This document shows, one piece after another, positions 28,191 through 52,168 of a stretch of DNA of 64,000 bases. Position numbers and translations under genes: made by a program. The notes below the pieces were generated by a model. It was not told the origin of the DNA. It did no database searches and was given only the letters and a program-made list of their open reading frames with translations. Source of the stretch: Candidatus Bathyarchaeota archaeon (lineage in GTDB: Archaea; Thermoproteota; Bathyarchaeia; TCS64); the NCBI GenBank assembly GCA_963769425.1, contig CAVYLP010000001.1, forward strand, positions 96,001 through 160,000, in the 5' to 3' direction. Numbering within the stretch: position 1 is the stretch's first letter; every line of letters starts with the position of its first letter.

Positions 28191-30521
28191 TCAACCTGAT
28201 AAAAGTCGCCGCTTCTCCGGTGAGAGCTTACCCATCTGCTTCACCTGCTCCGTAAAATCCGAGATGAACTTAGGGAGCATCTTAAAGATGGGGAGCACCA
28301 TGGGTTGGAGGCGAACCCTCCCCGGTTCTATACCGAGTCCACTCAGTACCTCAGAGACATCAGCAACTAGCTTCTCCGCTAGCTCGGCCTCGTGGCTATC
28401 CTCCACCTCGCAGATGAACACCCCGTCAGCGCCCAACCCCATCGCCTTCAGGATGGTCTCCTTACTCAAGAGCGCGGTCGAGGTCATCCTCATTATCCTT
28501 ATGTTCGTCGGATAGTGAAGCCTCGCCGTGCCCGCGTTGTCGGCTGCCGTGTAACTTATATTATCGTCGAAGAAGCCGAGCACCGCAACATCGCCCTCCG
28601 TCCCGGAGAGGAGAGCCTTAGCCTCCTCAAGCAGAACCTCCCCTGAGTTGTTAGGTATCCTCAGCGCATCCTTGGGGCAAACAGCGATACACGCCCCGCA
28701 GCCGTTGCAGCTCACAGGATCCAGCACGGGCCCCTCGCCGCCCATCGACAAAGCGCCCCTGACGCAGGCGACCGCGCATGCACCGCAGAGGTCGCACTCG
28801 CCATCGTGGACCGGCTTCTCTGGGCTCAGCTTCGCCGTTCCGTCCCCCACGAAGTTGTAGACGTGGCTCGCCGCGGCCCTCGCGTCGACGACCGAGTCGT
28901 GTATGTCCTTCGTTCCCGTGGCGACACCGACGGCGAAGACGCCCTCCCTAAGCGTCGAGATCGGGTCGAGCTTAACGTGCTTCGGCGCCACAAAGAGGTC
29001 CTCCCCGAGGGCTACCCCGAGGCGGGACGCGAGCTCGCCCGTCCCAGCGGAGGGCACCATCGCGGAGCTGAGCACCACGAGGTCGACGGGATTCCTCAAC
29101 ATCAACCCCGTGTCTAGGTCCTCGACGATTATCTCGAACCGCCCATCGTCCAGAGGCGTCAGTCCGCCGGGCTTAGCGTGTATGAACTGGACCCCCTTCT
29201 CACGGGCCTCCCTGTAGAAGTCCTCGAACCCGCGCCCCGTCATGCGCATATCCGTATAGTAGATGTAGACCTTCAGAAATGGCAAAAACTTCCTGAGTAG
29301 GATGGCCTGCTTGATCGAGTAGGCGCAGCAGACGCTGCTGCAGTAACCTACGCCGTGGTGAGGGTCGCGGCTCCCCGCGCAGAGGATGTAGGCGATGGAC
29401 TTCACCCTCTCACCGTTACCACGCGTCAGGACCTTCCCCTCGGTGAGCTCATTCTCTATGAGCCTCTCAACCTGAAGGGCGTTCACGACCCCACTCATCT
29501 CAGGGTGGTACGTGCGAAGCACCTCCTCCCCGATGAGGTCGAAGCCAGTGGCCACTATCATCGACCCGGCGTCGACTGTGACGATCTTCTCCTGATCCTC
29601 TAGGTTGATCGCGCCGACTGGGCACGCCTCAACGCAGGCCCCACATCGCTTGCAGTGCTCGAAGTCGATTGCGAAGCTGGAGGGTACGGCCTGAGGGAAG
29701 GGGAGGTAAGCAGCCTTACGCTTATAGAGACCCTCCTCGAACTCGTTCGACACCTCAGTCGGGCAGACCTGACCGCATCGTCCACATTTCAAGCATTTGT
29801 CAGCATCGACGCCCCTCGGCGCGACCCTGACCTTGACGTGATAGTCTCCCGGGCCGCCCGACACCGAGGCGACCTCAGCACCAGTCAGGAGGGTAATGTT
29901 CTCGTCGTTTCCGACCTCAGCCATGCGTGGGCTGAGTATGCAGGGACTACAGTCAAGTGTTGGAAAAGTCTTGCTGAGCTGCGCCATCCGTCCCCCTATG
30001 CTGGGGCGACGCTCAACGAGGTTGACCTTGAACCCGCCCCTGCTGAGTTGTAGGGCCGCGGTTATCCCCGAGACGCCCCCGCCGATGACTAGCACGTCCC
30101 TATTTATCTTCACAACTTTCTCCTCGAGAGGCTCAAGGGTACGCGCACGCGCAACGCCGCCCCTGACTAGGCTGATTGCCTTCTCGGTAGCTCCCCTGTC
30201 GTGGACCCAGCTGCATTGCTCCCTCAAGTTGACGTGGACGAGCCGGTGTCGGTTTACACCGGCTTCCTCAACGACGCCGCGGAACATCTCCTCATGCATA
30301 TGTGGACTGCAGCAGGCGACAACTACTCGGTCCAACCCTTGGGACTTGATGCTGCCCTTTATCAGCTGGAGCCCCGGCTTTGAGCAGAGAAACTCGGTGA
30401 CCTGCCCCGTCTTGACGTCCTCCTCGTCCTTCACCGAATCGCGGACATTCTCGCAGTTCACGGTGCCCGATATGTTCCCGCCGCACTTACAGATGAATAC
30501 GCCTGTTGTCATGTCAGACAC
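28191..30521 (-). CDS. hdrA: heterodisulfide reductase subunit A with a C-terminal degenerate MvhD-like domain
   Basis: FICKCGGNI, REQCSW, GGGVSG FAD motif, KTFPTLDCSPC, ferredoxin insert, CAGSRD...YCSSVCC; the MvhD-like tail lacks Cys ligands. Confidence 0.92.
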   Translation of the reverse strand: MSDMTTGVFICKCGGNISGTVNCENVRDSVKDEEDVKTGQVTEFLCSKPGLQLIKGSIKSQGLDRVVVACCSPHMHEEMFRGVVEEAGVNRHRLVHVNLREQCSWVHDRGATEKAISLVRGGVARARTLEPLEEKVVKINRDVLVIGGGVSGITAALQLSRGGFKVNLVERRPSIGGRMAQLSKTFPTLDCSPCILSPRMAEVGNDENITLLTGAEVASVSGGPGDYHVKVRVAPRGVDADKCLKCGRCGQVCPTEVSNEFEEGLYKRKAAYLPFPQAVPSSFAIDFEHCKRCGACVEACPVGAINLEDQEKIVTVDAGSMIVATGFDLIGEEVLRTYHPEMSGVVNALQVERLIENELTEGKVLTRGNGERVKSIAYILCAGSRDPHHGVGYCSSVCCAYSIKQAILLRKFLPFLKVYIYYTDMRMTGRGFEDFYREAREKGVQFIHAKPGGLTPLDDGRFEIIVEDLDTGLMLRNPVDLVVLSSAMVPSAGTGELASRLGVALGEDLFVAPKHVKLDPISTLREGVFAVGVATGTKDIHDSVVDARAAASHVYNFVGDGTAKLSPEKPVHDGECDLCGACAVACVRGALSMGGEGPVLDPVSCNGCGACIAVCPKDALRIPNNSGEVLLEEAKALLSGTEGDVAVLGFFDDNISYTAADNAGTARLHYPTNIRIMRMTSTALLSKETILKAMGLGADGVFICEVEDSHEAELAEKLVADVSEVLSGLGIEPGRVRLQPMVLPIFKMLPKFISDFTEQVKQMGKLSPEKRRLLSG

Positions 30522-31386
30522 CCACCTTCCCCAGGAGAGCTTGGACGCTCACCGAGTTCACGTCGAAGCCAAGCTTTGATGGATCGATTCCGAGTGCTAA
30601 TCCGAGTAACTGGGGGTAATAGAGGACGGGGAGGCCGAAATGCCTCCCGAGCTCCTCCTCCAAGTTCCTCTGGTACTTGTCGTACATAATCCCGCAGAAG
30701 GGACAGATGACAACCATGGCGTCAGCCTTCTCGGATAATTTCGCGAGCTTCTTCCCCGTCATCGCCTTAGCTATATCCTCACGGACAGCGAGTATCCCGC
30801 CGCCGCAGCAATCGGTCTTCCCCTGGTAGTCAAGGGTCTCCGCCCCAGTGGCCTCGACGAGCCTGTCGAGGGTGCCGGGGAACTCTGGGTCGTCGAATCC
30901 GGAATAGAGCGTGGATGGGCGCACATAGTGACACCCGGGGTGAGTGGCTATCTTAAGGCTCTTGAGCGGCTTTACGACCCGCACCCGAATGTTGTTAAGG
31001 CCGTAGTCGTCGTGGAGCATCCGCGCGAAGTGGATCACCCTCGGCCTCTCCCCCGCGTAGGTTACCCCCGCCTGCGCGAGGACCTTGACAACGCCCTTGG
31101 CGGCCTCAGCGTCCTCACCGAGCCTCTTCTCCGCCTTGCTCAGCATTTCGCCACATGCCGAGCAGAGGGTGACGAGAGTATAGCCGCTCGCCGACGCGAT
31201 CTGCAGGTTAGCAGCTGCCATTGACAGCGCCTTGACCTCGTCGACCGGCTCCACGGGGAACCCACAGCAGCCGTAGCCGCCGTCGACGAACTCGATGCCG
31301 AGCACCCTCGCAACCTCCCTCGCGGACTGCTCATAGTTCATCTGCCGGGTAGGAATCGTGCATCCGAGGAAGAGGCTGTACCTCAT
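30514..31386 (-). CDS. hdrB: heterodisulfide reductase subunit B
   Basis: Two CCG domains (GCCG, DCCGGG), HPGCH, CPFC, PVLYYPQLLGLALG. Confidence 0.95.
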   Translation of the reverse strand: MRYSLFLGCTIPTRQMNYEQSAREVARVLGIEFVDGGYGCCGFPVEPVDEVKALSMAAANLQIASASGYTLVTLCSACGEMLSKAEKRLGEDAEAAKGVVKVLAQAGVTYAGERPRVIHFARMLHDDYGLNNIRVRVVKPLKSLKIATHPGCHYVRPSTLYSGFDDPEFPGTLDRLVEATGAETLDYQGKTDCCGGGILAVREDIAKAMTGKKLAKLSEKADAMVVICPFCGIMYDKYQRNLEEELGRHFGLPVLYYPQLLGLALGIDPSKLGFDVNSVSVQALLGKVGV

Positions 31387-31868
31387 GCCTTCGCCTCCGA
31401 GATGCGCTTAATGAACTCGGGCTCGGCCTCGACTGCGGGGAGACCCCGGTCGCTCCTCTCCTCGTTCGTAAAGTCGTCGACGGAATAGACGCGCCCGTTC
31501 CGCCTCAGGGTGTCGAGGAGCTTCGAGAGGTTGGCGGGAGCCACACCCTCTTTCGCCGCCATGTTCCTCAGGACCGTCATCACCTCGGGGGGGCGCACAT
31601 CCTGTGGGCACCTCTCAAGGCACATGAAGCACATGCTGCAGAGCCAGATCGTGTCGCTCGCGAAGACCTGCTTCTTAAGCCCCATCTTAGCCAGCTTCAT
31701 GATCCTCCGGGGGCTGAACGAAGCCTCCACCTCCCGAACTGGACAAGAGGCGGTGCATACCCCACACTGGAAGCACTTGCTGAGGTCGCTCGCGCCCAGC
31801 TCGGCTTCGAGCCTCCTCAGGAACCGGGTGTCAGCCTCGGATAGATCCACCACGCTGTCTGGGGCCAT
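31383..31868 (-). CDS. hdrC: heterodisulfide reductase subunit C
   Basis: CFQCGVCTASCP, IWLCSMCFMCLERCP. Confidence 0.95.
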   Translation of the reverse strand: MAPDSVVDLSEADTRFLRRLEAELGASDLSKCFQCGVCTASCPVREVEASFSPRRIMKLAKMGLKKQVFASDTIWLCSMCFMCLERCPQDVRPPEVMTVLRNMAAKEGVAPANLSKLLDTLRRNGRVYSVDDFTNEERSDRGLPAVEAEPEFIKRISEAKA

Positions 31869-32254: not shown

Positions 32255-33382
32255 TTAGATGGCCTCCTTCTTCACCCGGACGAAGCGCTCCGTGCAGCTT
32301 ATGCACGGGTCGATGCTGTGGACGATGGTCGGTATATCCGGGACGTCGTTCCCGATGAGCATTGAGACGAGCGGCGGAATGTTTGCGGCGGTAGGGGTCC
32401 TGATCTTGCAGCGGCTCAACTTGTTCGTGCCGTTCCCCTCTACGTAGTAGAATAGCTCGCCCCGTGGCTGCTCAGTCCTCACGAGGGCCGTGCCTACGGG
32501 GAACTTTTCGCTCTTGTTGAGCACCGGCCCCTCAGGCATCTCCTTAAGCGCCTTCTCGATGAGGTCTAGGCTCTGGAAGACCTCGTCGTACCTGACAAGC
32601 ATCCTCGAGTAGGCATCCTCACCATCGTGGGTCACTGGCTCGAAACCGAGCGCCCCGTATGCCTCGTACCCAGTCATCCTAGCGTCGGTCTTTATACCGC
32701 TTCCCCTGATCGTTGGGCCAACGGCTCCGAGGAAAGATGCCTTGCTCTTCGGCAAGATTCCCCTACCCTGCGTCTTGGCCTTAAGGGCGGAGTCCTTGTA
32801 GAAGACGGGGCGAAGGTTCTCCATCTTCTGCCTTACTACGCTGAGGTCTTCGACGTATGTCTTCGCGAGGCCCTCGTCGATGTCCTTCCTGCAGCCGCCG
32901 ATCACGTTGGTCTCAAGGTGGATGCGGTGGCCGTTCGTCTTCTCGTTGAGGGTAAGTATAACCTCACGGTCGCGCCAGATCTGCATGAATAAGCTCTCGA
33001 AGCCGACGGCGTCGGCAAAGAGGCCGAGCCAGAGCAGGTGGCTCTGGAGGCGCTGTAGCTCGCTCCAGGCGACGCGTATGTACTTTGCTCGTGCGGGGAC
33101 CTCCGTGTCCGTCGTTTTCTCGATCGCCTCGCAGTAAGTCATGCCGTGGATGAAGTTGCAGATGCCGCAGACGCGCTCGCAGAGGTAGATGTTCCTCTTC
33201 AGGTCGTTGATCTCGCACGCGCGCTCTATACCGCGGTGGACGTAGCCTAGGTTGGGCACGACGTCGATTATCTTATCCTCGTCGACCACGAAGCGGAGGT
33301 GTACGGGTTCGGGTAGCACGGGGTGCTGGGGTCCGAAGGGTATTACAGTGTACTTGTTCTGGGACATCTTTGCATCACTCAT
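32255..33382 (-). CDS. echE: group 4 [NiFe]-hydrogenase large subunit
   Basis: FGPQHP, GYVHRGIE, L1 ERVCGIC, EQPRGE, RTPT, L2 DPCISCTER. Confidence 0.93.
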   Translation of the reverse strand: MSDAKMSQNKYTVIPFGPQHPVLPEPVHLRFVVDEDKIIDVVPNLGYVHRGIERACEINDLKRNIYLCERVCGICNFIHGMTYCEAIEKTTDTEVPARAKYIRVAWSELQRLQSHLLWLGLFADAVGFESLFMQIWRDREVILTLNEKTNGHRIHLETNVIGGCRKDIDEGLAKTYVEDLSVVRQKMENLRPVFYKDSALKAKTQGRGILPKSKASFLGAVGPTIRGSGIKTDARMTGYEAYGALGFEPVTHDGEDAYSRMLVRYDEVFQSLDLIEKALKEMPEGPVLNKSEKFPVGTALVRTEQPRGELFYYVEGNGTNKLSRCKIRTPTAANIPPLVSMLIGNDVPDIPTIVHSIDPCISCTERFVRVKKEAI

Positions 33383-35174
33383 TCCAGTCACACTTCCAGC
33401 AGCGCTTAGCCTCGCGAAGCGCCTCGTCCTCGTTGTAGCCGAGCTCGACCTCGCCGAAGCCCTTCACGCGCTCCTCAGCGTTCAGCTCGCGGCAGGTAAC
33501 CATCTCCTGGAACCTGATCTCCTCAATGTTTGGTGGGCGGCCGACGAACTCGTCCGCCTTGAGGTCAGGCGGCGGTAGGCCCTTGCCTCCGAGGCTCATG
33601 TCTATGCTGTGGGCGGCCTTCCTGCCGTCCCTCAGGGCCTCGATTACACTGCTGGGGCCGAAGACGCCGTCGCCACCGGCGTAGACGCCGGGGAGACTCG
33701 TCTGCATAGTCTCCTCGTTGATGACTATCCTGCCCTGCCTGTTGACCTCGACACCGAAGTCGGCGGGAACAACTACTGACTGGCCGATCGCCTTCACTAT
33801 GGTATCAACCTCGATGGTGTACTCGCTCCCCTTCACCGGTACTGGCCTGCGCCTGCCCGAGTCGTCGGGTGCACCGAGCTCCATGTGTTGGAGGGTGAGC
33901 TTCAGTGGCTTACCCGGCTCGATCTTGATGGGTGCGGTTAGGTACTCGAAGCTGACGCCCTCCTGTAGGGCCCCGTGGATCTCGTGGGGCGAGGCGGGCA
34001 TCTCCTTCTCGGTGCGCCTGTAGTACATGACCACCTTGCTGGCGCCTAGGCGCTTCGCTACGCGTGCCGCGTCTATCGAGCTGTTGCCTCCGCCGATGAT
34101 GGCGACGCGGTCGCCGACGGACGGGGTCTTGTCGTGTACGTTGACCTGGTTGAGGAGCTCACGGAAGTCCATGACACCCTCGTTGTCCTCGCCGTCGACG
34201 CCCAGCTTGTAGCTGTCGACCGCCCCGATGGCTACGAAGACGGCGTCGTGTTCCTTCTTAACGATCTTGAGGTTCTTGACCTCCTTCTTCGTCTTGAGGG
34301 TGACACCCGCCTCGGCTAGACGTGCCTGTATCTCCTCCTCAAGGAGGTCCTTAGGCAGCCTGTACTTTGGTATCCCCCAGAGCATGGCCCCGCCGCAGCG
34401 GTCGCCCCTCTCGTAGAGAGTGACCTCATGGCCGAGCAGGCCGAGGAAGTAGGCGCATCCGACGCCCGCGGGTCCCCCACCGACTACAGCGACCTTCTTA
34501 CCTGTGGGCTTCTCCACCTTCATCTTCCGCCTGAGGCTCGGCATCGAGTCCGCGGTGTACCTCTTTATGAGCCTGATCTGTATGGGCTCGTCGTTGCGCT
34601 CCTGGCGGCAGCCTTCCTGACACGGGGCGAAGCAGACCCTCCCGAGTATCGCGGGAAGAGGAGCCCTCTCACAGACGGTGCTGTAACCGCCCTGTGGATC
34701 GCCCGTAGCGACCTGCCTGATGTACTTCGGAGCATTAACGGAACCGGGGCACTGCTCTCTACAGCGGCCATAGAACCTCTTAATGAAAGGCGCGGGACCG
34801 ACCGCCGGCTTTACGAGCGTGGTGTCGTCAGCGCCCTCGATGGTGAGAAGCTTTCCGCCAAAGTCTACGCTGATGTTTGAGACCTGTATCTTGAAGAGGT
34901 CCTGTAGCTCGTTCTCGAAGAGCAGCGCGGATGGGTAGACGCTCGTGATACTCGGCATCGCCTCCTTCCGGGGGATCTTCACATGGAGGTTGACTACGTC
35001 CAAGCCCTTCGCGAAGTTGTATACGTACTCCATCTCCTGGCCGTGGTCGAGGGCCGTGATGGTTATCAGGCGTGCGCCCTGAGCCTTCAGCTCGCCAAGC
35101 CTGTTGAACATCTCCGACTTATCGGCTGAAATGTCCTCTGTCTTTGATTTTAACTCGAACTGCTGTACCGTCAT
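33375..35174 (-). CDS. fusion of an EchD/NuoC-like domain and a GltD/NfnB-like FAD/Fe-S NAD(P)H oxidoreductase
   Basis: N-terminal ARLITIT, PSITSVYPSALLFENELQDLF (EchD); then C...CP, LGRVCFAPCQEGC, GGGPAG, GIPKYRLP, GGGNSSID, YRR, GVYAGGD, EAKRCWKC in one uninterrupted ORF. Confidence 0.9.
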   Translation of the reverse strand: MTVQQFELKSKTEDISADKSEMFNRLGELKAQGARLITITALDHGQEMEYVYNFAKGLDVVNLHVKIPRKEAMPSITSVYPSALLFENELQDLFKIQVSNISVDFGGKLLTIEGADDTTLVKPAVGPAPFIKRFYGRCREQCPGSVNAPKYIRQVATGDPQGGYSTVCERAPLPAILGRVCFAPCQEGCRQERNDEPIQIRLIKRYTADSMPSLRRKMKVEKPTGKKVAVVGGGPAGVGCAYFLGLLGHEVTLYERGDRCGGAMLWGIPKYRLPKDLLEEEIQARLAEAGVTLKTKKEVKNLKIVKKEHDAVFVAIGAVDSYKLGVDGEDNEGVMDFRELLNQVNVHDKTPSVGDRVAIIGGGNSSIDAARVAKRLGASKVVMYYRRTEKEMPASPHEIHGALQEGVSFEYLTAPIKIEPGKPLKLTLQHMELGAPDDSGRRRPVPVKGSEYTIEVDTIVKAIGQSVVVPADFGVEVNRQGRIVINEETMQTSLPGVYAGGDGVFGPSSVIEALRDGRKAAHSIDMSLGGKGLPPPDLKADEFVGRPPNIEEIRFQEMVTCRELNAEERVKGFGEVELGYNEDEALREAKRCWKCDWNE

Positions 35175-35175
35175 C

Positions 35176-35619
35176 TTAGTCCACCTTCTCTCCCTCACTC
35201 ACCTTCTGGAGCTTCTGTAATGCGAGCACAACCCCGTCCACGATGGACTCTGGGCGGGCCGCGCAGCCGGGGACGTAGACGTCCACGGGGATGACCTTGT
35301 CGATGCCCCCGAGGGTGTTGGGGCAGTTGTGGAATATCGCACCGCTACACGCGCACTCGCCGATGGCGATGACCGCCTTCGGCTGAGGCATCTGGTCGTA
35401 GAGGTTCTTCAGCACGTGCTGGTTGCGCTTGTTGGCGGGGCCAGTCACGACCAGGACGTCCGCCTGCTTCGGGTCGCCTATGTTGACTATGCCGAAGCGC
35501 TCCACATCGAACTTAGGCGTCAGAGCGGCTAGTATCTCGATGTCGCAGCCGTTGCAGCTGCCGCAGTCAAAGTGTATGACCCACGGCGACTTGAGCCGTG
35601 CCTTAGTCATTGTCTTCAT
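35176..35619 (-). CDS. echC: Ech hydrogenase small subunit (NuoB-like)
   Basis: KSPW, CGSCNGCDIE, GECA, VPGCAARPE. Confidence 0.93.
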   Translation of the reverse strand: MKTMTKARLKSPWVIHFDCGSCNGCDIEILAALTPKFDVERFGIVNIGDPKQADVLVVTGPANKRNQHVLKNLYDQMPQPKAVIAIGECACSGAIFHNCPNTLGGIDKVIPVDVYVPGCAARPESIVDGVVLALQKLQKVSEGEKVD

Positions 35620-38837: not shown

Positions 38838-40187
38838 TTGGATAAGTACATTGAGAGTATCTACAAAGGCCTCGTTGAGAAGGATCCCCTACAGAAGGAG
38901 TTCCATCAGGCAGCTTACGAGGTTCTATCGACCATCGAGCCGGCGATCAAGAAGTTCCCTAAGTACCAGGAGAACGCCATCCTTGAGCGCTTGGTTGAGC
39001 CCGAAAGGATCATTCAGTTCCGTGTTCCTTGGAAGGACAAGGACGGCAAGATCCAAGTCAACCGCGGCTACCGTGTACAGTACAACTCAGCCATCGGCCC
39101 ATACAAGGGCGGATTCAGACTCCATCCCACCGTCAACCTCGGCGTCATGAAGTTCCTCGGGTTCGAGCAGACCTTCAAGAACAGCCTCACAACGCTCCCA
39201 ATGGGAGGCGCAAAGGGCGGCTCCGACTTCGACCCCAAGGGCAAAACGGATGCTGAGGTAGAGACCTTCTGCGAGAGCTTCATGTTCGAGATCTACAGGC
39301 ACATCGGTCAGTTCATCGACGTCCCCGCAGGCGACATCGGTGTCGGCGGGCGAGAGATCGGCTACCTGTACGGTGCCTACCGCAAGATCACCAACAACCA
39401 CGGCACAGGTGTACTCACGGGTAAGGGCCTTACCTTCGGCGGCAGCCTCGCGAGGACCGAGGCGACCGGCTATGGTGCAGTCTACTTCAGTGAGGAGATG
39501 ATGAAGACGAAGAAGGAGTCCCTAAAGGGCAAGGTCGCCGTCGTCTCCGGCTCCGGAAACGTCGCACAGTACGCGGTCCAGAAGCTCATCCAGCTCGGCG
39601 CTAAGCCAGTCACTCTTAGTGACTCCGACGGCTACATCTACGACCCTGCAGGCATCGACGCGAAGAAGCTTGACTACGTGCTCGAGCTCAAGAACGTCAA
39701 GAGGGGCCGCATCAGCGAGTACGCTGAGAAGTTCAAGGGCGTCACCTACGAGGCGAAGAAGACCCCGTGGGCCGTAAAGTGCGACCTAGCATACCCCTGC
39801 GCGACTCAGAACGAGCTAAACGACAAGGACGCTAAGAAGCTCATCGACAACGGAGTCAAGGCGGTCACCGAGGGCGCAAACATGCCGTGCACCCTAGAGG
39901 CCATCAAGGTCCTCATGGACGGGGGCGTGCTATACGCACCAGGCAAGGCCAGCAACGCAGGCGGCGTAGCCACGAGTGGCCTCGAAATGAGCCAGAACAG
40001 CCAGCGCTACTTCTGGAGCTTCGAGGAGGTTGACCAGAAGCTACACGGCATCATGGTCAGCATCCACAAGAACGCGTACGACACGGCGAAGCTCTTCGGT
40101 CAGCCCGGTAACTATGTCATGGGCGCCAACATCGCAGGCTTCCTCAAGGTAGCCGACGCGATGATCGCTCAGGGCATATACGCCTAA
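38838..40187 (+). CDS. gdhA: NADP-specific glutamate dehydrogenase
   Basis: GPYKGG.R.HP, KNSLTTLPMGGAKGGSDFDPKG, DVPAGDIGVG, GSGNVA, KASNAGGV. Confidence 0.96.
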   Translation: MDKYIESIYKGLVEKDPLQKEFHQAAYEVLSTIEPAIKKFPKYQENAILERLVEPERIIQFRVPWKDKDGKIQVNRGYRVQYNSAIGPYKGGFRLHPTVNLGVMKFLGFEQTFKNSLTTLPMGGAKGGSDFDPKGKTDAEVETFCESFMFEIYRHIGQFIDVPAGDIGVGGREIGYLYGAYRKITNNHGTGVLTGKGLTFGGSLARTEATGYGAVYFSEEMMKTKKESLKGKVAVVSGSGNVAQYAVQKLIQLGAKPVTLSDSDGYIYDPAGIDAKKLDYVLELKNVKRGRISEYAEKFKGVTYEAKKTPWAVKCDLAYPCATQNELNDKDAKKLIDNGVKAVTEGANMPCTLEAIKVLMDGGVLYAPGKASNAGGVATSGLEMSQNSQRYFWSFEEVDQKLHGIMVSIHKNAYDTAKLFGQPGNYVMGANIAGFLKVADAMIAQGIYA

Positions 40188-40340: not shown

Positions 40341-41159
40341 ATGTACGATATAGTGCGGAAGGAGCAGCTTGCACCGAACATCAAGCTCTTTGAGGTCAAC
40401 GCGCCCGCGGTTGCCGCTAAATCGAGGCCTGGGCAGTTTGTAATTCTGCGTGTCCACGAACGGGGTGAGAGATTTCCGATAACGATAGCCGACGCCAGCC
40501 CCAGGAAGGGCACGGTTAACATCATCTTTGCAGAGGTGGGCAAGTCATCGACCCAACTCGGGAAGCTAGAGGTCGGGGAGGGCATACTGAACTTCTCCGG
40601 CCCCCTCGGGAACGCGACTAAGATTCAGAAATACGGCGACGTCCTCTGCGTCGGTGGGGGGGTTATGGCCGGTGCACTGCTATACCAGGTGAAGGCGTTG
40701 AAGAATGCGGGGAACCACATAACAACGATCCTCGGGGCGAGGAGCAAGGAGCACCTGATCCTCGTAGATGAACTAAGGAAGGCCAGCGACGAGTTCCACG
40801 TCGCCACGGACGACGGCTCGGAGGGCCACGAGGGCATAGCCTTCCTCGCGGAGATGCTTAAGGAGAAGAAGTTCGCCCAGGCAATCACCATCGGGCCGAC
40901 GAGCATGCAGATGGTCGTCTCCGAGATGACGAGGCCCTACAGTATACCCACAACGGTGAACCTGTTCCCTATAATGGTGGATGGGACGGGTATGTGCGGG
41001 GCCTGCCGTGTAACTGTCGGCGGGGAGACGAAGTTCGCATGCGTAAACGGCCCAGATTTCGATGGCCACAAGGTAAACTACGACGAGCTGATTAGTCGCA
41101 TGAGGTTCTACAACCCAAACGAGAAGATTGCCATGGTAGTTTTCGACGGAGGCGACTGA
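40341..41159 (+). CDS. nfnA: NfnA/SudB-type subunit of NADH-dependent ferredoxin:NADP+ oxidoreductase
   Basis: PGQFVILR..E.GER.PITIAD, GPLG, MVDGTGMCGACRV, CVNGPDF. Confidence 0.9.
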   Translation: MYDIVRKEQLAPNIKLFEVNAPAVAAKSRPGQFVILRVHERGERFPITIADASPRKGTVNIIFAEVGKSSTQLGKLEVGEGILNFSGPLGNATKIQKYGDVLCVGGGVMAGALLYQVKALKNAGNHITTILGARSKEHLILVDELRKASDEFHVATDDGSEGHEGIAFLAEMLKEKKFAQAITIGPTSMQMVVSEMTRPYSIPTTVNLFPIMVDGTGMCGACRVTVGGETKFACVNGPDFDGHKVNYDELISRMRFYNPNEKIAMVVFDGGD

Positions 41160-41160
41160 C

Positions 41161-42564
41161 ATGGCGCAAAAGAACCCCCAGATGGAGATGCCTAAGCAGG
41201 CGGTCGAACAAAGGGTACACAACTTTGATGAGGTCGCGCTAGGTTACATTGAGGAACTCGCTCTGATGGAGGCGGGGAGGTGCCTAAACTGCCCCAAGCC
41301 ACAGTGCAAGAAGGGGTGCCCGGTAGAGGTTCCCATCCCCGAGTTTATACAGCTCATAAAAGAGCACAAGTTCGCGGAGGCGGCTAAAAAACTCAAGGAG
41401 AAGAACGCGCTTCCCGCCGTTTGCGGTAGGGTATGCCCACAGGAGGAGCAGTGCCAGAAGTTCTGCGTCCTCGGCGTCAGGGGCGACCCCGTCGGAATCG
41501 GGCGCCTCGAGAGGTACGCCTCAGACTGGGAGAGGCTTAACACGAAGCTCGAGCCCCAGGCAATAACACAGACGGGGGGCAAGGTCGCGGTCGTGGGCTC
41601 CGGCCCAGCCGGGTTAACCGTAGCCGCTGACCTCGCCAAGATGGGGCACAAGGTCACGATCTTCGAGTCCCTACACACGGCTGGAGGCGTGCTCATGTAT
41701 GGCATCCCCCAGTTCAGGCTCCCGAAGGAGATAGTCCAGACCGAGGTCGAGTACGTGAAGAGCCTCGGCGTCGAGCTACGCCTAGACTCCACCATCGGGC
41801 TACTATCCACCATACAGGAGCTGATGACCGGCGGCTACGATGCGGTTTTCATAGGCTCTGGCGCCGGACTCCCCAACTTCCTCCATGTTCCCGGCGAGAA
41901 CCTAAAGGGCATCTACTCCGCGAACGAATTTCTCATCCGCACGAACCTGATGAAGGCGTACAAGTTCCCAGAGTACGATACGCCGATAAGAGTGGGAAAG
42001 AAAGTCGGGGTCGTCGGGGCCGGCAATGTCGCCATGGACTCCGCCCGCTGCTCCTTGCGACTGGGGGCCGAGCGTGTCTACATCATCTACCGACGGAGCA
42101 GAGATGAGATGCCTGCGAGAGCAGAGGAGGCCGAGAACGCCGAGGAGGAGGGCATAGAGTTCAACCTCCTCACCAACCCAATCCGCTTCATCGGGAACGA
42201 CCGCGGCTTCCTGGAGAAGGTCGAGTGCGTGAAGCAGCGACTCAGCGAGCCGGACCAGTCGGGCAGGCGCAGGCCTGAGCCCATCGAAGGCAGCAACTTC
42301 ACAATCGACATCGACACGGCCGTGATCGCCATCGGGCAGTCACCAAACCCCATCATCCAGCAGACGACAGAGGGGCTACAGACTACCCGCCACGGGACTA
42401 TAGTGGTTAATGAAGAAACCATGCAGACTGCCCTCCCTGGCGTCTATGCCGGAGGCGACGTGGTCAGCGGGGCGGCTACGGTCATCAGCGCTATGGGGGC
42501 TGGCAAGAAGGCCGCGAAGGCGATAAACGCATATATAATCGCTAAGGCCGCTAAAACAGTCTAA
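41161..42564 (+). CDS. nfnB: NfnB/SudA-type (GltD-like) subunit
   Basis: RCLNC..P.C..GCPV, CGRVCPQEEQC, GSGPAG, GAGNVAMD, YRRS, GAATVI.AMG; adjacent to nfnA. Confidence 0.92.
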   Translation: MAQKNPQMEMPKQAVEQRVHNFDEVALGYIEELALMEAGRCLNCPKPQCKKGCPVEVPIPEFIQLIKEHKFAEAAKKLKEKNALPAVCGRVCPQEEQCQKFCVLGVRGDPVGIGRLERYASDWERLNTKLEPQAITQTGGKVAVVGSGPAGLTVAADLAKMGHKVTIFESLHTAGGVLMYGIPQFRLPKEIVQTEVEYVKSLGVELRLDSTIGLLSTIQELMTGGYDAVFIGSGAGLPNFLHVPGENLKGIYSANEFLIRTNLMKAYKFPEYDTPIRVGKKVGVVGAGNVAMDSARCSLRLGAERVYIIYRRSRDEMPARAEEAENAEEEGIEFNLLTNPIRFIGNDRGFLEKVECVKQRLSEPDQSGRRRPEPIEGSNFTIDIDTAVIAIGQSPNPIIQQTTEGLQTTRHGTIVVNEETMQTALPGVYAGGDVVSGAATVISAMGAGKKAAKAINAYIIAKAAKTV

Positions 42565-46447: not shown

Positions 46448-48775
46448 TTCTTAGCCTCCTCGATCTGCTTCACTAGCCCATCCAGCTCCGTGAGGAACTG
46501 TTCGAGCATCGAACCGCAGCTCTTCAAAACCCTTATCGGGGCATTTCCCTCGCCGTAGAGGCGATCCATGAATCTTAGCTGCCCCTCAGCGTGGTCGACG
46601 CCCTTCTCGAAGTGGCAGCGGTCCTTGACGCAGCCTATGAGCATGACGCCGTCCGCACCGTGGTCTAGGGCGCCGACTATGTGGCGGAGGCTGATGGTGC
46701 TCATGCAGGGGACATATACAGGGTATGAAGGAGGGACTGTAGCTCGCTCCCTTCACTCCCGCGATGTCGAGCAGCCTGTACCCGCAGTCGTTGCAAGCAA
46801 AGCCTATGATCTTGGTGGCACCATTTCCACCCTCAAGGCTGCTTTCACCTGAGCATCCACAAGATCAAATCCGAAGTTCGGATTATCGAGTGCCCTCGTT
46901 GGGCAGCTTGTGATGCATAGACCGCAGCTCTGGCAGAGTGTCTCGTCGATACGGACAGGGCCCTCGACGGGCATCGTAATGGCCTGATATGGGCAGACCG
47001 TCGGGCAGACGCCACAGCGTCCGCACCTCGCCGAGTCGACCCTCGGCGTCAGGATAGGCTTCATAGCGTCCACCTCCTTCATCAGGTGAAGGCCCGCCAT
47101 CGCTGCAGCTGCGCTCGCTTGGGATACGGACTCTGGGATGTCCTTGGGTGAGTGGCAAGCGCCCGCGAGATAGACACCGGGGCGTTTCGTTATTGTGCTG
47201 GCAACCTTCGTATCCACCTCCTTAAAGAACCCGTCATTGTCGAGTTCGAGGCCGAGCCTCTCGGCGAGGTCGCGGGTGCCCTTGCTAGGCACCATGCCCG
47301 TACTGAGGACCACCAGGTCACTTGGTGTAGATGTTCTCTGTCCCTTCCCGTCCGTGTACTCGACGATCAGGCCACCGCCCTCGGCCTGCCTGACGGCGTC
47401 GAGGTTCCCGTGGACGAAGTTGATGCCAATCGTCTTTACGCGGTTGTAGAACTCCTCGTAGTACTTCCCGCCGGCGCGTATGTCCTTGAAGAGGATGGTG
47501 ATGTCGATGTCCGCGCCCTGGTGGAGTTTTATCTCCTCGGCGTGTTTCATCGCCGCCATGCAGCAGTATCGGCTGCACCACGGGTTGATCTCCGGGTCCC
47601 TGCTCCCCGCGCACTGGATCATGACTATCTTCTTCGGCTTCTGCCCGTCGCTGGGCTTGGTGAGGATTCCCGCGGTTGGGCCCTCGCCGTCGAGGTAGCG
47701 GGCGAGCTGGAACTGGTCGATGACATCCGCGTTCTCTGCGCCGTACTTGGGGTGCTTCCGGGCGTCCCAGTTGTCGACCCCAGTGGCGACGATTATCGAG
47801 CCGACGTAGAGGTCCTTGAACTTCTCCTCGTCCTTGAAGTTAATTGCCTGATTGGGGCAGACGCGCTCGCAGAGGCGGCAACTTCCCTTTGTGAGGTAGA
47901 GGCACGCCTCCGGGTCGATTACGTGTTTCCTCGGGATCGCGTTCGAGTGTGGGAGGTATATTGCCTTCCGCTTGCTTATCCCCCGGTTTATCTGGTCGGG
48001 GACGCTGACGGGGCACCTCTCCGTGCACTGCCCGCATGCGACGCACTTCTCCTCGTCGACGTATCGGGGCTTCCGCCTCACGTGGACGCGGTATCCGACG
48101 GGCATCCTGATGACGGCCTCGACCTCGCTGTTGTCGAGGACCTCGATGCCCTGTTCGTTTCCGACGTCCATCATCTTGGGGCCGCCGATGCAGATTGCGC
48201 AGCTGTCCTCGGGGAACGTCTTGCCCAGCAGACGGCATCAGGCCACCGATCGTCGGCTCACGCTCAACTAGGTGAACCATCATGCCGAGCTTCGCCAGGT
48301 CAAGGGAGGCCTGGATGCCTGAGACGCCGCCGCCAATCACGAGCACGTCGTTGAATCGCTGCACCACCTTCCTGTCGAGGGGGGTGCTCATCTTCGCCTT
48401 CTCGACGGCGACGCTTATGAGGCTCTTCGCCTTCTCGGTCGCTTCCACCCGGTCGTTGTGCACCAGAGCGCACTGCTCCCGGACGTTCGTTATTATGAGC
48501 TGGTTGGGGTCGAGCCCAGCCCCCTCCATGGCCTTCTGTAGGGGTTTCTCAAGTCTGACGCGGGAGCCTGTGACGGCGACAACGCTCGTGACGTCCTTGC
48601 CACCGTTCTTCTTCACGTCAGTTAGCCGGTCGAGCATGACCTTCTGGTTGAGGATCGGGGTCTGGTAGGCCGCGTAGACGCCGTTCATCCCCCTAGCGTA
48701 CTTCTCTAGGGCGTCGACGTCGAGCCTCTCCTTCAGGGTCTCCCCGAAGGTGTCGAAGATCACAATCGCGCTCAC
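46444..48775 (-). CDS. hdrA: second HdrA-MvhD fusion protein; frameshifts near 46830 and 48230
   Basis: REQCA, GGGVSG, KTFPEDSCAIC, CAGSRD..WCSRYCC, ferredoxin motifs, FACNDCGY / PCMST / GC..DRCHF across three frames. Confidence 0.85.
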
Positions 48776-50172
48776 TGCGGCTCCCTCCTGTTCGTATGCC
48801 TCTCGCCATCCACGGTCACATCCACCTCGACCATGTGGACGCTACAGCTGAGGCACGGGTCGTAGGCCCTGACGATCTTCTCGATCCCCCACATGGCGTC
48901 CTTCCGTGCGTCGGGTTTCGAGAACGCCTCGGCGTGGGCGTCGGCAAAGAGCCTGAGGTTCTTCTCGATGCTCTTGTGGTTGAACGTGGTCGGCGCGACT
49001 ATGTTAGCCGCCTTTATGATGCCCCTGTCGTCGATCTCGTAGCTGTGGAAGAGTAGGCCGCGGGGCGCCTCGACGAAGGCGTAGCCGACGCCGGCCTTCG
49101 CTTTGACTGGTTCCCTCGTCCTCTCCGTCATTATGACGTCGTTCGCTAGGCCGTCTAGCACCTCGTCGACGGAGGCGACGAACTCTACGGTTCTGGCGAG
49201 GTTGTAGGCGGCAGTGTCGTCGGTTGGGCGCTTGAATAGGCGCTCGTATGCCTTCAGGTACTCCGCCGCAGTGCCCCACTGCATCTTATCTATAACGTTC
49301 ATCCTCGCGAGAGGTCCCACCCTCATGTTTCCCCCAATGGGGCCCATGTCCTTTAGGTACTGGATCTTCGTGAAGCTGTGGCCGCTAGTCGTCTCCTCAA
49401 GCTGCTTGTAGTACTCTTGGGCAGGGAACTGGAGCAGCTGTTTGCCCTTCCCGTCCTTGACCCTGATCTCGCCATCGTATAACTCGTACCCACCATCCTT
49501 ATTGACAAGCCCCATGTATGGCGAGTCAAGCCCCATGTACTCATTCGGGTCATTGACGCGCTTCTCGTAAATGCCGAATATCGCGTCGGCTATCTTGCGA
49601 ACATTCGTGAGCGCGACGCGCCCCTCGCGAAGGAGCTTGTACCTAGCCTCACCGTTGAGCCCCTTCGTCTGCCCACCGGGGACGCTCGTGACAACGTGGA
49701 CGAGCCTACCGCCTATCTCGGTGACGACCCTGTTCCCGTACTCGTGGAGCTGCAGGGCTGCTGATGCGAGGTCTGGTGCAGCGTCGGCTACACCTATGAC
49801 GTTACGGTTCTCGATCGGAATGAGGTCTGGGAGGGCTAGGAATGCTAGGTGCAGAGCGTGGCTTGTGATGAAGCTAGCAGCGTTTAGTGTGCGGCGCAGC
49901 AGGGTCGCCACCTCGGGGACCTGGACCCCCCATGCGTCCTCGACCGCCTTCACCGACACGAGGTGGTGGTTGACATAACATATTCCGCAGATGCGCTCGC
50001 TTATCCTCGGCGCGTCCTCCGCTTGCTTGTTCGTGAGGAGGTACTCGAAGAACCTTGGGCCGACGGCGACGCTGAACTGCAGGTCCTTGACGGCCCCGCC
50101 CTCTACCTCTATCTTCACCTTGCCCGTCCCCTCGAGACGGGTGAGTGGGTTGATCATGATTGTCTCGGTCAT
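48772..50172 (-). CDS. mvhA: group 3 (3c/Mvh-like) [NiFe]-hydrogenase large subunit
   Basis: PLTRLEG, RFFE, ERICGIC, RVGPLAR, EAPRG.L.H, RAYDPCLSCSVH plus C-terminal extension. Confidence 0.88.
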   Translation of the reverse strand: MTETIMINPLTRLEGTGKVKIEVEGGAVKDLQFSVAVGPRFFEYLLTNKQAEDAPRISERICGICYVNHHLVSVKAVEDAWGVQVPEVATLLRRTLNAASFITSHALHLAFLALPDLIPIENRNVIGVADAAPDLASAALQLHEYGNRVVTEIGGRLVHVVTSVPGGQTKGLNGEARYKLLREGRVALTNVRKIADAIFGIYEKRVNDPNEYMGLDSPYMGLVNKDGGYELYDGEIRVKDGKGKQLLQFPAQEYYKQLEETTSGHSFTKIQYLKDMGPIGGNMRVGPLARMNVIDKMQWGTAAEYLKAYERLFKRPTDDTAAYNLARTVEFVASVDEVLDGLANDVIMTERTREPVKAKAGVGYAFVEAPRGLLFHSYEIDDRGIIKAANIVAPTTFNHKSIEKNLRLFADAHAEAFSKPDARKDAMWGIEKIVRAYDPCLSCSVHMVEVDVTVDGERHTNRREPQ

Positions 50173-51042
50173 TTCTTGCGGCCTCCGTTGAGGACCTTGG
50201 CGAGCTGGCTACTCGGGTAGGTGTACCGGTAGATTGTGCCGGCGTACTCGGATAGGCGTGAAGTTCTCGTTCGCCTCCTTGGTGAGGCTCGTCAAGGCGT
50301 CGAGCATCGTTAGGCCCTGGTCGCTGTTGCCCGCGGTGGGTCCGCGGCAGCCGTCGCAGGGCATACCGGCCTTCGGGCACGGTGCGCCGCATCCACCCAT
50401 AGTGGCGGGACCCATGCAGAGGAAGCCCTGCTCAAGCAGGCACCTCTCCGGGTCCGCGACCTCCTCGTATATCCTCTTGAGCTTCTTGCTGTACTCTCCT
50501 ATTCGCTCGCGGGGGCAGAGCTCGCAGACGTCCGTCTTGCTGAGCTCGGGTGTGCCGCCGCTGAGTAGGGTTGTGAGGACACCGGCGATGTCTCCGGTCT
50601 CGGGCGGGCAGCCGGGTATCCTGAAGTCTACCTTCACATAGTCTCCGATTGCCTGCTGCTTCGGGAGGAGCTTGTCGACGGTCGGCATATCGGATGCGAC
50701 TGTGCCCTTCTGCTCCGAGTATATTCTGCTCAGTAGCTCGTCCCCCTCCTTTAGGTTCGCGAGCCCTGGGACGCCACCGAAGCATGCGCATGAGCCGAGC
50801 GTGATGAGGATGCTTGATCTCTCCCGAATCTTCTTCGTGGTCTCTACCTCGTGCTCGGTTCTGACGCCTCCCTCAATTATGGCAACGTCAATCTTCTCCG
50901 GTATCTCCTTCGCATCCATGAGCGTTGGAGCGTAGACCAACTCATTCGCCTTGAGGATGCCGAGGAGCGCCTCGTGTAGCCCCACCGTCGCCACCTGGCA
51001 CCCGGTGTCACCCGAGAGCCCCAGAAGCAGTATCTTCACCAT
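50169..51042 (-). CDS. mvhG: [NiFe]-hydrogenase small subunit (MvhG-like); frameshift near 50255
   Basis: GDTGC, GSCACFGG, PGCPP, VCELCPR, CLLEQG..CMGPAT..GC.A.CP....PCDGCRG. Confidence 0.88.
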
Positions 51043-51258
51043 GCTATCACCGACCCGGCATCCCACCGGAACCCAAAGTACGGCAAAGGGAATCAGTAAT
51101 TATTCTAATGACTACATATATTGTTTATGTTGGTATAGAGAATAATATCTGTAGGTAAAAATTCCCCATCGAAAAGGGAGGGGCGAATATGGAGATTATT
51201 CCTGAATATTGTAAATAGATGCTGAAAGATGTAAAAATATGTGGAGGCTAAGGGGTTC

Positions 51259-52155
51259 CTAGAAGAACTCCTTGCCGTCCTTGGAGACGAGGCGACCCCA
51301 GTAGGCGGTTACGTCATCCTGGATCTCCTTTATCTCGTCCTCCGTGATGTGGCGGAACCTGCCCTGCATCTTGAGGACGTCCTTCACCGGTTTGAGCTCC
51401 TTCGGCTTGTACGTGATACGGAAGCTCTCGCCGTTGATGACCTCGTAGAGCGGCCACATGCCACTGAGGACCATCTCCTTGGCCACCTTCACTGCTACCT
51501 GTGGCTCGAACCTCCAACCCGTCGGGCAGGGGGCCGAGACCTGGATGTAGCGGAAGCCCTTGATGTTCTTTGCGTACTCGAGCTTTCCGATGAAGTCCTC
51601 GGGGTAGGCGATGCTGGCGGTTGCCATGTATGGTACCCTGTGGAGGGCTACCATGGCGGCGACGTTCTTGCGGCGCTCCTTCTTGCCTCGGCTGAACTCG
51701 CCGACTGGCGTCGTTGTCGTCTCCGCGTACTTCGTCGTGGCGCTGCTGCGCTGGCCACCGGTGTTCATGTAGGCCTCGTTGTCGTAGCAGACCCAGAGAA
51801 CGTTCTCGTTGCGCTCAGCGGCGCCCGAGAGACCCTGGAATCCGATGTCGGTCGTGCCTCCATCACCCACTATCGTGGTGACGATGGCGTCCTCGCGGTT
51901 CAACCTCTTGAACGCGTGGGCGAGTCCTGTCGACATCGCTCCTGCGCCCTCGAAGACCTCACCGTAGATGCTCGGCTGCTCTAGGTTGCCGAACGCTGGG
52001 CCACAGCAGGCGACCTCCTGGCGGACCATCTTGTCCTTCAGGACCTTCGCGACGATCCTCGCGACCGAGGCGCCGGTGCAGCCCTGGCAGGACTGGTTCG
52101 CTGGCTGTATGTACTCCTTCTCGTCTAGCTTCACGAGTGGAACTGGTTTGCTCAT
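51259..52155 (-). CDS. 2-oxoacid:ferredoxin oxidoreductase beta (TPP-binding) subunit
   Basis: SCQGC, GDGG..DIG, YDNEAYMNTGGQRS, PCPTGW. Confidence 0.92.
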   Translation of the reverse strand: MSKPVPLVKLDEKEYIQPANQSCQGCTGASVARIVAKVLKDKMVRQEVACCGPAFGNLEQPSIYGEVFEGAGAMSTGLAHAFKRLNREDAIVTTIVGDGGTTDIGFQGLSGAAERNENVLWVCYDNEAYMNTGGQRSSATTKYAETTTTPVGEFSRGKKERRKNVAAMVALHRVPYMATASIAYPEDFIGKLEYAKNIKGFRYIQVSAPCPTGWRFEPQVAVKVAKEMVLSGMWPLYEVINGESFRITYKPKELKPVKDVLKMQGRFRHITEDEIKEIQDDVTAYWGRLVSKDGKEFF

Positions 52156-52168
52156 TTCATTATCCTCC

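Follow-up and report, generated by a model that had tools for sequence, protein, structure and literature searches.

We analyzed a stretch of 64,000 nucleotides (here called the window) from a Candidatus Bathyarchaeota archaeon (GenBank assembly GCA_963769425.1, contig CAVYLP010000001.1, positions 96,001 to 160,000 of the forward strand). It contains an operon for a [NiFe] hydrogenase of the Ech (energy-converting hydrogenase) type, in which the gene for the D subunit is fused to a gene for a flavoprotein related to GltD and NfnB. All coordinates refer to the window and are collected in Table 1.

At the echD position, the listing of open reading frames (ORFs) gives a single uninterrupted frame on the minus strand. 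This frame is open from a GTG (33375..35198, 607 aa). We place the start at the ATG at 35174, giving a protein of 599 aa, because the N-terminus then begins like that of the homologues; the start of echC was also picked by homologue agreement. The gene order is echABC, fusion gene, echEF. The genes are tightly packed, with 1 nt between the end of the echC stop codon and the ATG of the fusion gene, and a 17-nt overlap between the echE start and the 3' end of the fusion gene. By Pfam, the products form the six-subunit A to F set of Ech (NuoL-, NuoH-, NuoB-, NuoC-, NuoD- and NuoI-like), and the order is repeated in related loci. ORF and Pfam calls therefore bear out the initial annotation, which had described an uninterrupted 599-aa ORF at the echD position of a complete echABCDEF operon.

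The [NiFe] motifs RVCGIC and DPCISC are both intact in EchE, also as initially described. In a search of PDB sequences, the nearest solved chain to EchE was MbhL of the MBH complex (6cfw_L, E 3.9e-74), and no Ech structure was among the matches; EchE homologues carry the JGI name 'ech hydrogenase subunit E'. EchF contains eight cysteines arranged as two CxxCxxCxxxC motifs, and among 31 sequences seven of the eight were invariant and the remaining one (C46) nearly so. HypD, the only hyp gene product that was searched for, is encoded in the same genome (E 8.2e-139), which makes [NiFe] maturation in this organism plausible.

Complex1_30kDa, Fer4_20 and Pyr_redox_2, the domain combination that the initial annotation had proposed to look for, are found by Pfam in one protein. 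Complex1_30kDa matches residues 29-100 of the fusion (E 1.3e-9), and the AlphaFold2 model has an alpha/beta fold at residues 12-94 with block values of the predicted local distance difference test (pLDDT) of 83-91. Fer4_20 matches residues 137-211 (E 4.5e-21, covering only positions 31-108 of the 113 profile positions) and Pyr_redox_2 residues 226-517 (E 4e-31). A YRR motif, which we take to bind the 2'-phosphate of NADP(H), is found at residues 385-387, and an RCWKC motif at residues 591-595. For the whole fusion, the model has a mean pLDDT of 87.7 and a predicted template modeling score (pTM) of 0.75.

Canonical EchD carries no cofactor, and canonical Ech is ferredoxin-dependent. In this respect the protein encoded in the window departs from Ech, as FAD, an NADP(H) site and two [4Fe-4S] clusters are predicted on the fused flavoprotein.

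Distribution and conservation of the fusion

The fusion is a real and widespread gene. When one genome per prokaryotic species was scanned, 68 fusion loci were obtained, all of them in ech context, so that the gene is not peculiar to this genome. By their labels, 43 loci belong to Bathyarchaeia (3 of them Hecatellales), 13 to Dehalococcoidia and 3 to Planctomycetota, and the remaining 9 carry single other labels, including Korarchaeum and Methanomethylicota, some of which may be due to binning errors. The gene immediately before the fusion is echC in 63 of the 68 loci, with the other 5 beginning at a contig end, and the gene immediately after it is echE in 64, with exceptions at contig ends. 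Most related loci have echA upstream of the fusion. A gene for EchB was found in 55 of the 68 loci; of the other 13, 9 are cut by contig ends and 4 are without echB despite upstream sequence. Both [NiFe] motifs are kept in 61 of the 62 complete EchE proteins of fusion clusters.

An artefact, such as a lost stop codon or a mis-assembly that joins echD to a gltD-like neighbor, has a vanishingly small probability. It would be in line with P0271, P0273 and P0275, gene calls of close relatives that lie on longer contigs and contain the EchD part only, but two of these three calls end in tails that are out of frame, and we read all three as frameshifts or stops, or pseudogenes, in single assemblies. 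A single frame runs through both domains in 60 of the 68 loci, which are independent and come from different species; the other 8 are truncated where their contig ends and show no internal stop. A stop and restart between the domains in relatives, which the initial annotation had named as evidence against a fusion, was not seen in these loci. In a search of 5.8 billion protein clusters, nearly all of the best 120 matches were about 600 aa long and had NuoC and flavoprotein Pfam domains; identities ranged from 97% to about 51%, and many of the clusters were labeled Bathyarchaeota. Assembly artefact or chimaera was rejected on the basis of the uninterrupted loci and the full-length database clusters.

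Residues expected to bind cofactors were compared in 61 full-length copies, namely the window copy and the 60 uninterrupted loci, 16 of them with bacterial labels. Each of the cysteines C138, C142, C181, C185, C189, C592 and C595 was invariant (61/61), as were K204 and Y385-R386-R387. A GltD/NfnB-like flavoprotein with its full cofactor set on the D subunit, as initially proposed, is thus retained throughout. Invariance holds for these seven cysteines and not for Cys168 of the window copy, which is variable.

The linker between the two domains (residues 104-128) has a pLDDT below 50 in the AlphaFold2 model of the isolated chain. Its mean column conservation among the 61 copies (0.58) is similar to that of the EchD domain (0.54), which again argues against an artefact, and K122, G126 and P129 of the fusion are nearly invariant among homologues. 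The combination of conserved sequence and low model confidence suggests that the linker may pack against other subunits.

In a quick IQ-TREE tree of the 61 copies (SH-aLRT support, midpoint root, the 8 contig-end loci left out), the 16 bacterial-labeled rows form one clade (support 100), which adjoins the Korarchaeum and Hecatellales rows.

Two individual loci deserve separate mention. In P0271, the EchD call stops just short of the first cluster-cysteine codon (Cys138 position), and the remainder is a separate call of 455 aa (P0041) on a contig of equal length; a stop codon such as TGA or an error could lie behind this split. At L023:7566-9779, no stop separates echC from the fusion, and both are read in one frame as an EchC-EchD-flavoprotein ORF of 738 aa; the nearest relative, L045, has a separate echC. 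This could be a true triple fusion or a stop codon lost in one assembly.

Kinship of the flavoprotein module

The flavoprotein part of the fusion is, judged by alignment, circularly permuted relative to NfnB, with the segment containing the first CxxC shifted from the N- to the C-terminus. The window itself encodes a canonical NfnB, and fusion residues 137-531 align with residues 48-462 of this protein (38% identity). The segment preceding them in NfnB, residues 16-44, matches the C-terminus of the fusion, residues 567-595 (59% identity, E 8e-7). The permutation accounts for the truncated Fer4_20 match in the fusion, as the full profile (positions 1-110) is found in the window NfnB. When the C-terminal tail is included, there are seven cysteines and one non-cysteine ligand, enough for two [4Fe-4S] clusters. 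The RCWKC motif pointed out in the initial annotation is therefore present, though not as an extra motif; it corresponds to the CxxC that comes first in the cluster domain of NfnB and is relocated in the fusion.

Solved structures place the module closest to a group of NADPH-oxidizing domains, rather than to NfnB. The best match was 9bov_A from Caldicellulosiruptor (E 1.8e-106, residues 138-596 aligned including the C-terminal RCxxC), followed by 9n5u_A from Thermococcus sibiricus (E 2.2e-100) and by StnC from Sporomusa ovata (8oh5_C, E 1.2e-88). NfnB (4ylf_B, E 2.6e-79) ranks behind these StnC/NfnA chains, and Foldseek searches with the AlphaFold2 model gave the same ranking. The C-terminal segment is aligned in the StnC-type chains 9bov_A and 9n5u_A. 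The NCBIfam models tell a similar story: the fusion scores 294.5 bits with TIGR01316 (gltA/NfnB, cut-off 471.75), for which the window NfnB reaches 588.7, and it remains below the cut-offs of the GltD models TIGR01318 (235.6 versus 482.95) and TIGR01317 (172.3 versus 447.7).

K204 of the fusion falls on K170 of 8oh5_C and 9bov_A in an ungapped alignment, whereas NfnB of T. maritima and the window NfnB have a glutamate at this position. In the accessible text of the structural papers, this lysine is reported to ligate the FAD-proximal cluster of StnC and NfnA (K170 in StnC, K165 in T. sibiricus NfnA), and NfnL is reported to have a glutamate (PMC10482914, PMC12018979). According to the same texts, the StnC/NfnA domain holds NADPH and FAD, feeds single electrons into an iron-sulfur chain, oxidizes NADPH by experiment, and has an FAD that is described as non-bifurcating (PMC10482914, PMC12018979). 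The view that the module is of NADP(H) type, already put forward in the initial annotation, gains from this, since the three closest solved relatives are reported there to oxidize NADPH.

The NfnL-like domain of StnC and of NfnA of the Bfu type (8oh5_C, 9bov_A, 9n5u_A) is likewise permuted relative to NfnB and GltD. The paper on the Stn structure nowhere uses the word 'circular' in its main text, and the permutation may be unstated there.

The permuted StnC-type module also occurs in proteins with very different partners (P0126-P0149). These partners include molybdopterin Fdh-like (1365 aa), OYE-type (892 aa), DHODH/Dus-like (872 aa), SdhB-like Fer2_3 (693 aa), DUF2148 (770 aa) and HdrC-like Fer4_8 proteins (591 aa), and [2Fe-2S] and ferredoxin domains are also represented. 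Because such different partners are found, the permuted module appears to behave as a portable entry cassette for NADPH.

In the ech operon, Pfam searches detected no GltB-like gene and no NuoG-, HydB- or HydC-like gene, and an NfnA-like [2Fe-2S]/FAD partner was also not found in the operon.

Genomic surroundings and a variant without echA and echB

Genes for heterodisulfide reductase subunits (hdrCBA) follow echF in the window. Among the loci that were informative for this purpose (at least 3.5 kb downstream, n=43), hdr genes were found directly after echF in 6. HdrCBA is thus lineage-specific context outside the core design of the system, and we rejected it as a core part.

On the other side of the operon, a gene for glutamate dehydrogenase (GDH) is encoded divergently, followed by nfnA- and nfnB-like genes. 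The protein passes the NADP-specific NCBIfam equivalog (738 bits versus a cut-off of 536), in agreement with the divergent GDH of the initial annotation. The divergent gdh-nfnA-nfnB arrangement is kept within the clade to about 61% identity, and of the 30 loci that are informative (at least 4.5 kb before echA), 9 have an NfnB-like gene on the upstream side. Shared ancestry may explain why this neighborhood was kept.

The genome (2.55 Mb, 6 contigs) encodes two further group-4-like clusters without the fusion, on contigs C3 (~132981-139493) and C5 (~58732-66034), and two other [NiFe] large subunits, one of which (mvhA) lies inside the window. It is unusually rich in Hdr, with at least seven hdrB/hdrC-like sets scattered over contigs C1 and C6. 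No RNA sequencing run was listed as containing the genome, and its share in each listed DNA run was small (0.17 or less). A second redox cluster occupies positions 44036-51066 of the minus strand of the window, next to a 2-oxoacid:ferredoxin oxidoreductase.

Five loci represent a variant of the operon (L026:7540-11157, L027, L028, L033 and L034). They consist of echC, the fusion gene, echE and a shortened echF of 88 aa without about 30 N-terminal residues, and the [NiFe] motifs are intact. No echA or echB was found within 2-7.5 kb, and the small ORFs that flank these loci encode no hydrophobic segments. In the quick tree, the five copies group together as a single clade within Bathyarchaeia, and metagenome-assembled genomes (MAGs) with the variant also hold a membrane-type copy (L039, L035, L021). 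Possibly this variant descends from a group 4 enzyme and is a soluble hydrogenase linked to NADP, and its composition suggests that EchC, the fusion, EchE and EchF could form a self-sufficient catalytic head.

Table 1. Positions of the fusion gene, its predicted domains and neighboring redox genes in the window.
Feature	Position	Strand	Evidence or remark
echD-gltD fusion gene	33375..35174	-	599 aa plus stop; ORF, Pfam, homologues
EchD/NuoC-like domain, residues ~10-103	34866..35147	-	Pfam Complex1_30kDa, AlphaFold2 model
Linker, residues 104-128	34791..34865	-	Low pLDDT yet conserved sequence
Flavoprotein Fe-S domain, residues 129-215	34530..34790	-	C138, C142, C181, C185, C189, K204; Fer4_20
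FAD and NADP(H) Rossmann domains, residues 216-535	33570..34529	-	Pyr_redox_2; GGGPAG, GGGNS, Y385-R386-R387
C-terminal tail, residues 536-599, with C592 and C595	33378..33569	-	Permuted N-terminal NfnB/GltD cluster segment
echA, NuoL/Mrp-antiporter-like membrane subunit, 640 aa	36526..38448	-	Proton_antipo_M (E 6.2e-49), Proton_antipo_N
echB, NuoH-like membrane subunit, 302 aa	35616..36524	-	NADHdh (E 1.8e-46)
echC, NuoB-like small subunit, 147 aa	35176..35619	-	Oxidored_q6 (E 1.3e-31)
echE, [NiFe] large subunit, 378 aa	32255..33391	-	Complex1_49kDa (E 1.7e-53), NiFeSe_Hases (E 1.5e-11)
echF, NuoI-like subunit, two [4Fe-4S] clusters, 112 aa	31916..32254	-	Pfam Fer4 families
hdrC	31383..31868	-	Pfam Fer4_8; starts 47 nt downstream of echF
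hdrB	30514..31386	-	Pfam CCG
hdrA with C-terminal MvhD domain	28191..30521	-	Pfam FlpD plus FAD/Fer4 families
gdh	38838..40187	+	NCBIfam PRK09414, NADP-specific glutamate dehydrogenase
nfnA-like	40341..41159	+	Passes PRK06222
nfnB-like, canonical	41161..42564	+	Passes TIGR01316; full Fer4_20 profile, positions 1-110
mvhG-like	50209..51066	-	
mvhA-like [NiFe] large subunit	48772..50172	-	
hdrA-like	46462..48775	-	Frame change near 48230, two overlapping ORFs
hdrA with MvhD domain, 803 aa	44036..46447	-	
2-oxoacid:ferredoxin oxidoreductase	51259..53347		Next to the second redox cluster

Predicted function and related systems

The above observations point to a broadly distributed variant of Ech with predicted coupling to NADP(H), and the enzyme is probably a non-bifurcating, NADP(H)-linked, ion-translocating [NiFe] hydrogenase. 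We place an NADP(H) port on the peripheral arm because the full ligand set is conserved, because the nearest kin are NADPH-oxidizing and non-bifurcating, and because the position within ech is constant. By gene fusion, the NuoC-like EchD would have gained a self-contained NADP(H):iron-sulfur oxidoreductase cassette with FAD, an NADP(H) site and two [4Fe-4S] clusters, one of them held by three cysteines and Lys204 and the other completed by the C-terminal CxxC relocated by permutation. The flavin would act as an ordinary converter between two-electron and one-electron steps, without bifurcation. Electrons would pass reversibly from NADPH to FAD, the proximal and the distal [4Fe-4S] cluster and the two clusters of EchF, and onward via the cluster of EchC to the [NiFe] site in EchE and H2. 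As in canonical Ech, EchA and EchB would couple the turnover to the translocation of H+ or Na+. The docking onto EchF, the specificity for NADPH, the direction of electron flow and the ion coupling are what we infer from this arrangement.

The direction of electron flow would depend on conditions. The standard potentials are -320 mV for NADP+/NADPH and -414 mV for H+/H2. H2-driven reduction of NADP+ is calculated to be exergonic by about 18 kJ/mol at standard state, and NADPH-driven release of H2 to be feasible only below roughly 70 Pa H2, or if paid for by the ion gradient.

For the predicted docking, we modeled the flavoprotein module (residues 129-599) together with EchF. The score was 0.50 (runs 0.64, 0.50 and 0.50), the best of 3 controls reached 0.00, the runs shared at least 27% of contacts, and the partner pLDDT was at least 70. 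Of 157 solved complexes, 116 passed the mark that we applied, as did 2 of 215 mismatched pairs, and the passes at 0.60 or below comprised only 18 of the 157 solved complexes and both passing mismatches; as the prediction was made with our own alignments, the counts are approximate. The prediction weakly supports a contact between the flavoprotein module and EchF.

Several points weigh against the function proposed here. NADPH is about 94 mV too positive for H2 evolution at standard state, so that the ion-pumping NADPH:H+ direction is thermodynamically tight. The module-EchF prediction is weak and yielded no interface, having been made with two chains out of context, and the linker is of low confidence in the single-chain model. 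The putative preference for NADPH over NADH is drawn from homology and the YRR motif. EchF is kept, so ferredoxin may still be a substrate. Finally, the arginine that contacts the flavin N5 in bifurcating NfnB is kept in the fusion, as R272 (R in 60 of 61 copies, K in 1).

This arginine bears directly on the suggestion of the initial annotation that the enzyme is possibly bifurcating or confurcating. The fused flavoprotein would then work like NfnB, with the electrons of NADPH being split, or merged with those of ferredoxin, at the FAD; one branch would supply the hydrogenase by way of both [4Fe-4S] clusters, and the other would supply a second acceptor. The homology to NfnB, the conserved arginine and the proximity of nfnAB and hdrCBA fit this proposal, which we nevertheless disfavor and consider quite improbable. 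The nearest kin are the StnC/NfnA(Bfu) domains, whose FAD is non-bifurcating in the reports cited above, and the module shares their permuted topology. The ligand of the proximal cluster, Glu in NfnB, is Lys in all 61 copies, as in StnC/NfnA. The operon lacks an NfnA-like partner, the adjacent nfnA pairs with its own canonical nfnB, and neither the hdrCBA genes downstream nor the nfnB-like gene upstream are general companions of the fusion (6 of 43 and 9 of 30 informative loci, respectively). A supercomplex of Ech and Hdr is very unlikely. At best it would be specific to this lineage, where HdrCBA, with an MvhD domain on its HdrA, would dock onto the hydrogenase, and H2 or NADPH would drive a bifurcating reduction of heterodisulfide and ferredoxin at the membrane. 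FlpD/MvhD is the adaptor to Mvh hydrogenase in methanogens, and the presence of such a domain at the C-terminus of HdrA, the short distance between echF and hdrC on the same strand, and the recurrence of the arrangement in 6 close relatives would suit such a complex. However, 37 of the 43 informative loci lack the arrangement, among them L007 with an identity of 85%; separate mvhGA genes lie beside other hdrA genes in the window; and hdr sets are numerous in the genome.

Retention of EchF invites yet another interpretation, a three-way hub or an Rnf-like role, in which ferredoxin still binds EchF, ion-coupled ferredoxin:NADP+ oxidoreduction is the main reaction, and H2 is an overflow product or an alternative donor. 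EchF is present in every locus with its cluster cysteines, and the window encodes a 2-oxoacid:ferredoxin oxidoreductase and NfnAB. A comparable site of NAD(P)+ reduction has been proposed, in the accessible text, for a gltD-related flavoprotein of mbx-like operons in Thermotoga (PMC4758237). However, the mbx-like complexes are described there as having vestigial [NiFe] ligands (PMC4758237), whereas the motifs are intact in nearly all fusion clusters; the flavoprotein, if docked on EchF as weakly predicted, may fill the ferredoxin site; and ion coupling is impossible in the variant that lacks echA and echB. We regard this three-way arrangement as unlikely. A similarly low likelihood is given to a farther-reaching version of the proposal, namely a previously unrecognized energy-coupling site in the form of a reversible ion-translocating H2:NADP+ oxidoreductase, which might extend via EchF to a membrane hub for H2, NADPH and ferredoxin, into which, in this lineage, a putatively co-transcribed HdrABC-MvhD may plug. 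The five loci that lack echA and echB would then encode a soluble NADP-linked hydrogenase of group 4 descent.

The non-bifurcating NADP(H)-linked hydrogenase that we favor would matter for metabolic models. Energy-converting hydrogenases are treated as ferredoxin-dependent, and metabolic models of uncultured sediment archaea such as Bathyarchaeia have yet to settle how NADPH, ferredoxin and H2 are balanced. If the prediction is true, H2 would be linked directly, and possibly with ion coupling, to the anabolic nicotinamide pool, and the ATP yields and H2 thresholds predicted for fermenting or acetogenic Bathyarchaeia, Dehalococcoidia and Planctomycetota would change. The StnC-type NADPH domain would be a portable cassette plugged into a complex-I-like peripheral arm, which bears on how complex I could have recruited its NADH-input module.

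A full-text literature search, which did not reach the supplement of PMC11697101, found no description of an EchD-GltD fusion or of an NADP-linked Ech, in keeping with the initial statement that no characterized Ech with this fusion was known. In PMC11697101, a figure legend on a Bathy-6 cMAG labels nine consecutive genes 'ECH', which could be the present ech plus hdr cluster. Loh et al. (2021) did not detect Ech in Bathy-6 (PMC7886697), and the accessible text of that paper does not mention glutamate synthase, GltD, NADP or a fusion. The fusion is also absent from the accessible text of PMC6349859, PMC9635834 and PMC5736913.

Among known systems, Ech of Methanosarcina barkeri and Thermoanaerobacter kivui (echABCDEF, group 4) has the same six-gene order, subunit families and [NiFe] motifs, but the D subunit described here bears an additional NADP(H) iron-sulfur flavoprotein of 470 residues. 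This flavoprotein resembles most the NfnL-like domain of StnC and NfnA in the Stn and Nfn-Bfu transhydrogenases (8oh5, 9bov, 9n5u), both in sequence and in fold, including the CxxC that follows the flavoprotein domain and the lysine ligand of the FAD-proximal cluster. The StnC/NfnA domain, as far as described in the accessible text, forms an insertion within a NuoG/Fdh-like subunit, which belongs to a soluble bifurcating complex of HydBC type, whereas the module of the fusion is a C-terminal extension of EchD in a membrane-bound hydrogenase; Cys114 of StnC is not conserved in the fusion. With NfnB/NfnL of NfnAB (NfnSL) and with GltD, the module appears to share the fold, two [4Fe-4S] clusters, FAD, the NADPH site and the YRR motif, but the order of cluster motifs is permuted, Lys replaces Glu, and the operon has no NfnA or GltB partner.

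Combinations of a hydrogenase with a GltD-type or other NADP(H) module are known from [FeFe] group A2 and from the soluble NADP-reducing [NiFe] group 3b. The accessible text on HydDB refers to group A2 as 'glutamate synthase-linked' and includes an enzyme of group 4g from Bathyarchaeota BA1 (PMC5037454). The A2 and 3b enzymes are soluble, have unrelated catalytic subunits and lack an ion-translocating arm, unlike the enzyme described here. The nearest printed precedent, by published description, is the gltD-related flavoprotein of Thermotoga mbx-like operons. In these operons, which are also found in proteobacteria, the flavoprotein replaces NuoI and was proposed as an NAD(P)+ site. Their NuoD homologue retains the [NiFe] ligands only in vestigial form, so that the complex is no hydrogenase (Degli Esposti, 2015, PMC4758237). 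Both systems combine a complex-I-like membrane module with a GltD-type flavoprotein, but the system described here retains EchF (NuoI) as well as intact [NiFe] motifs, and its flavoprotein is joined to EchD (NuoC).

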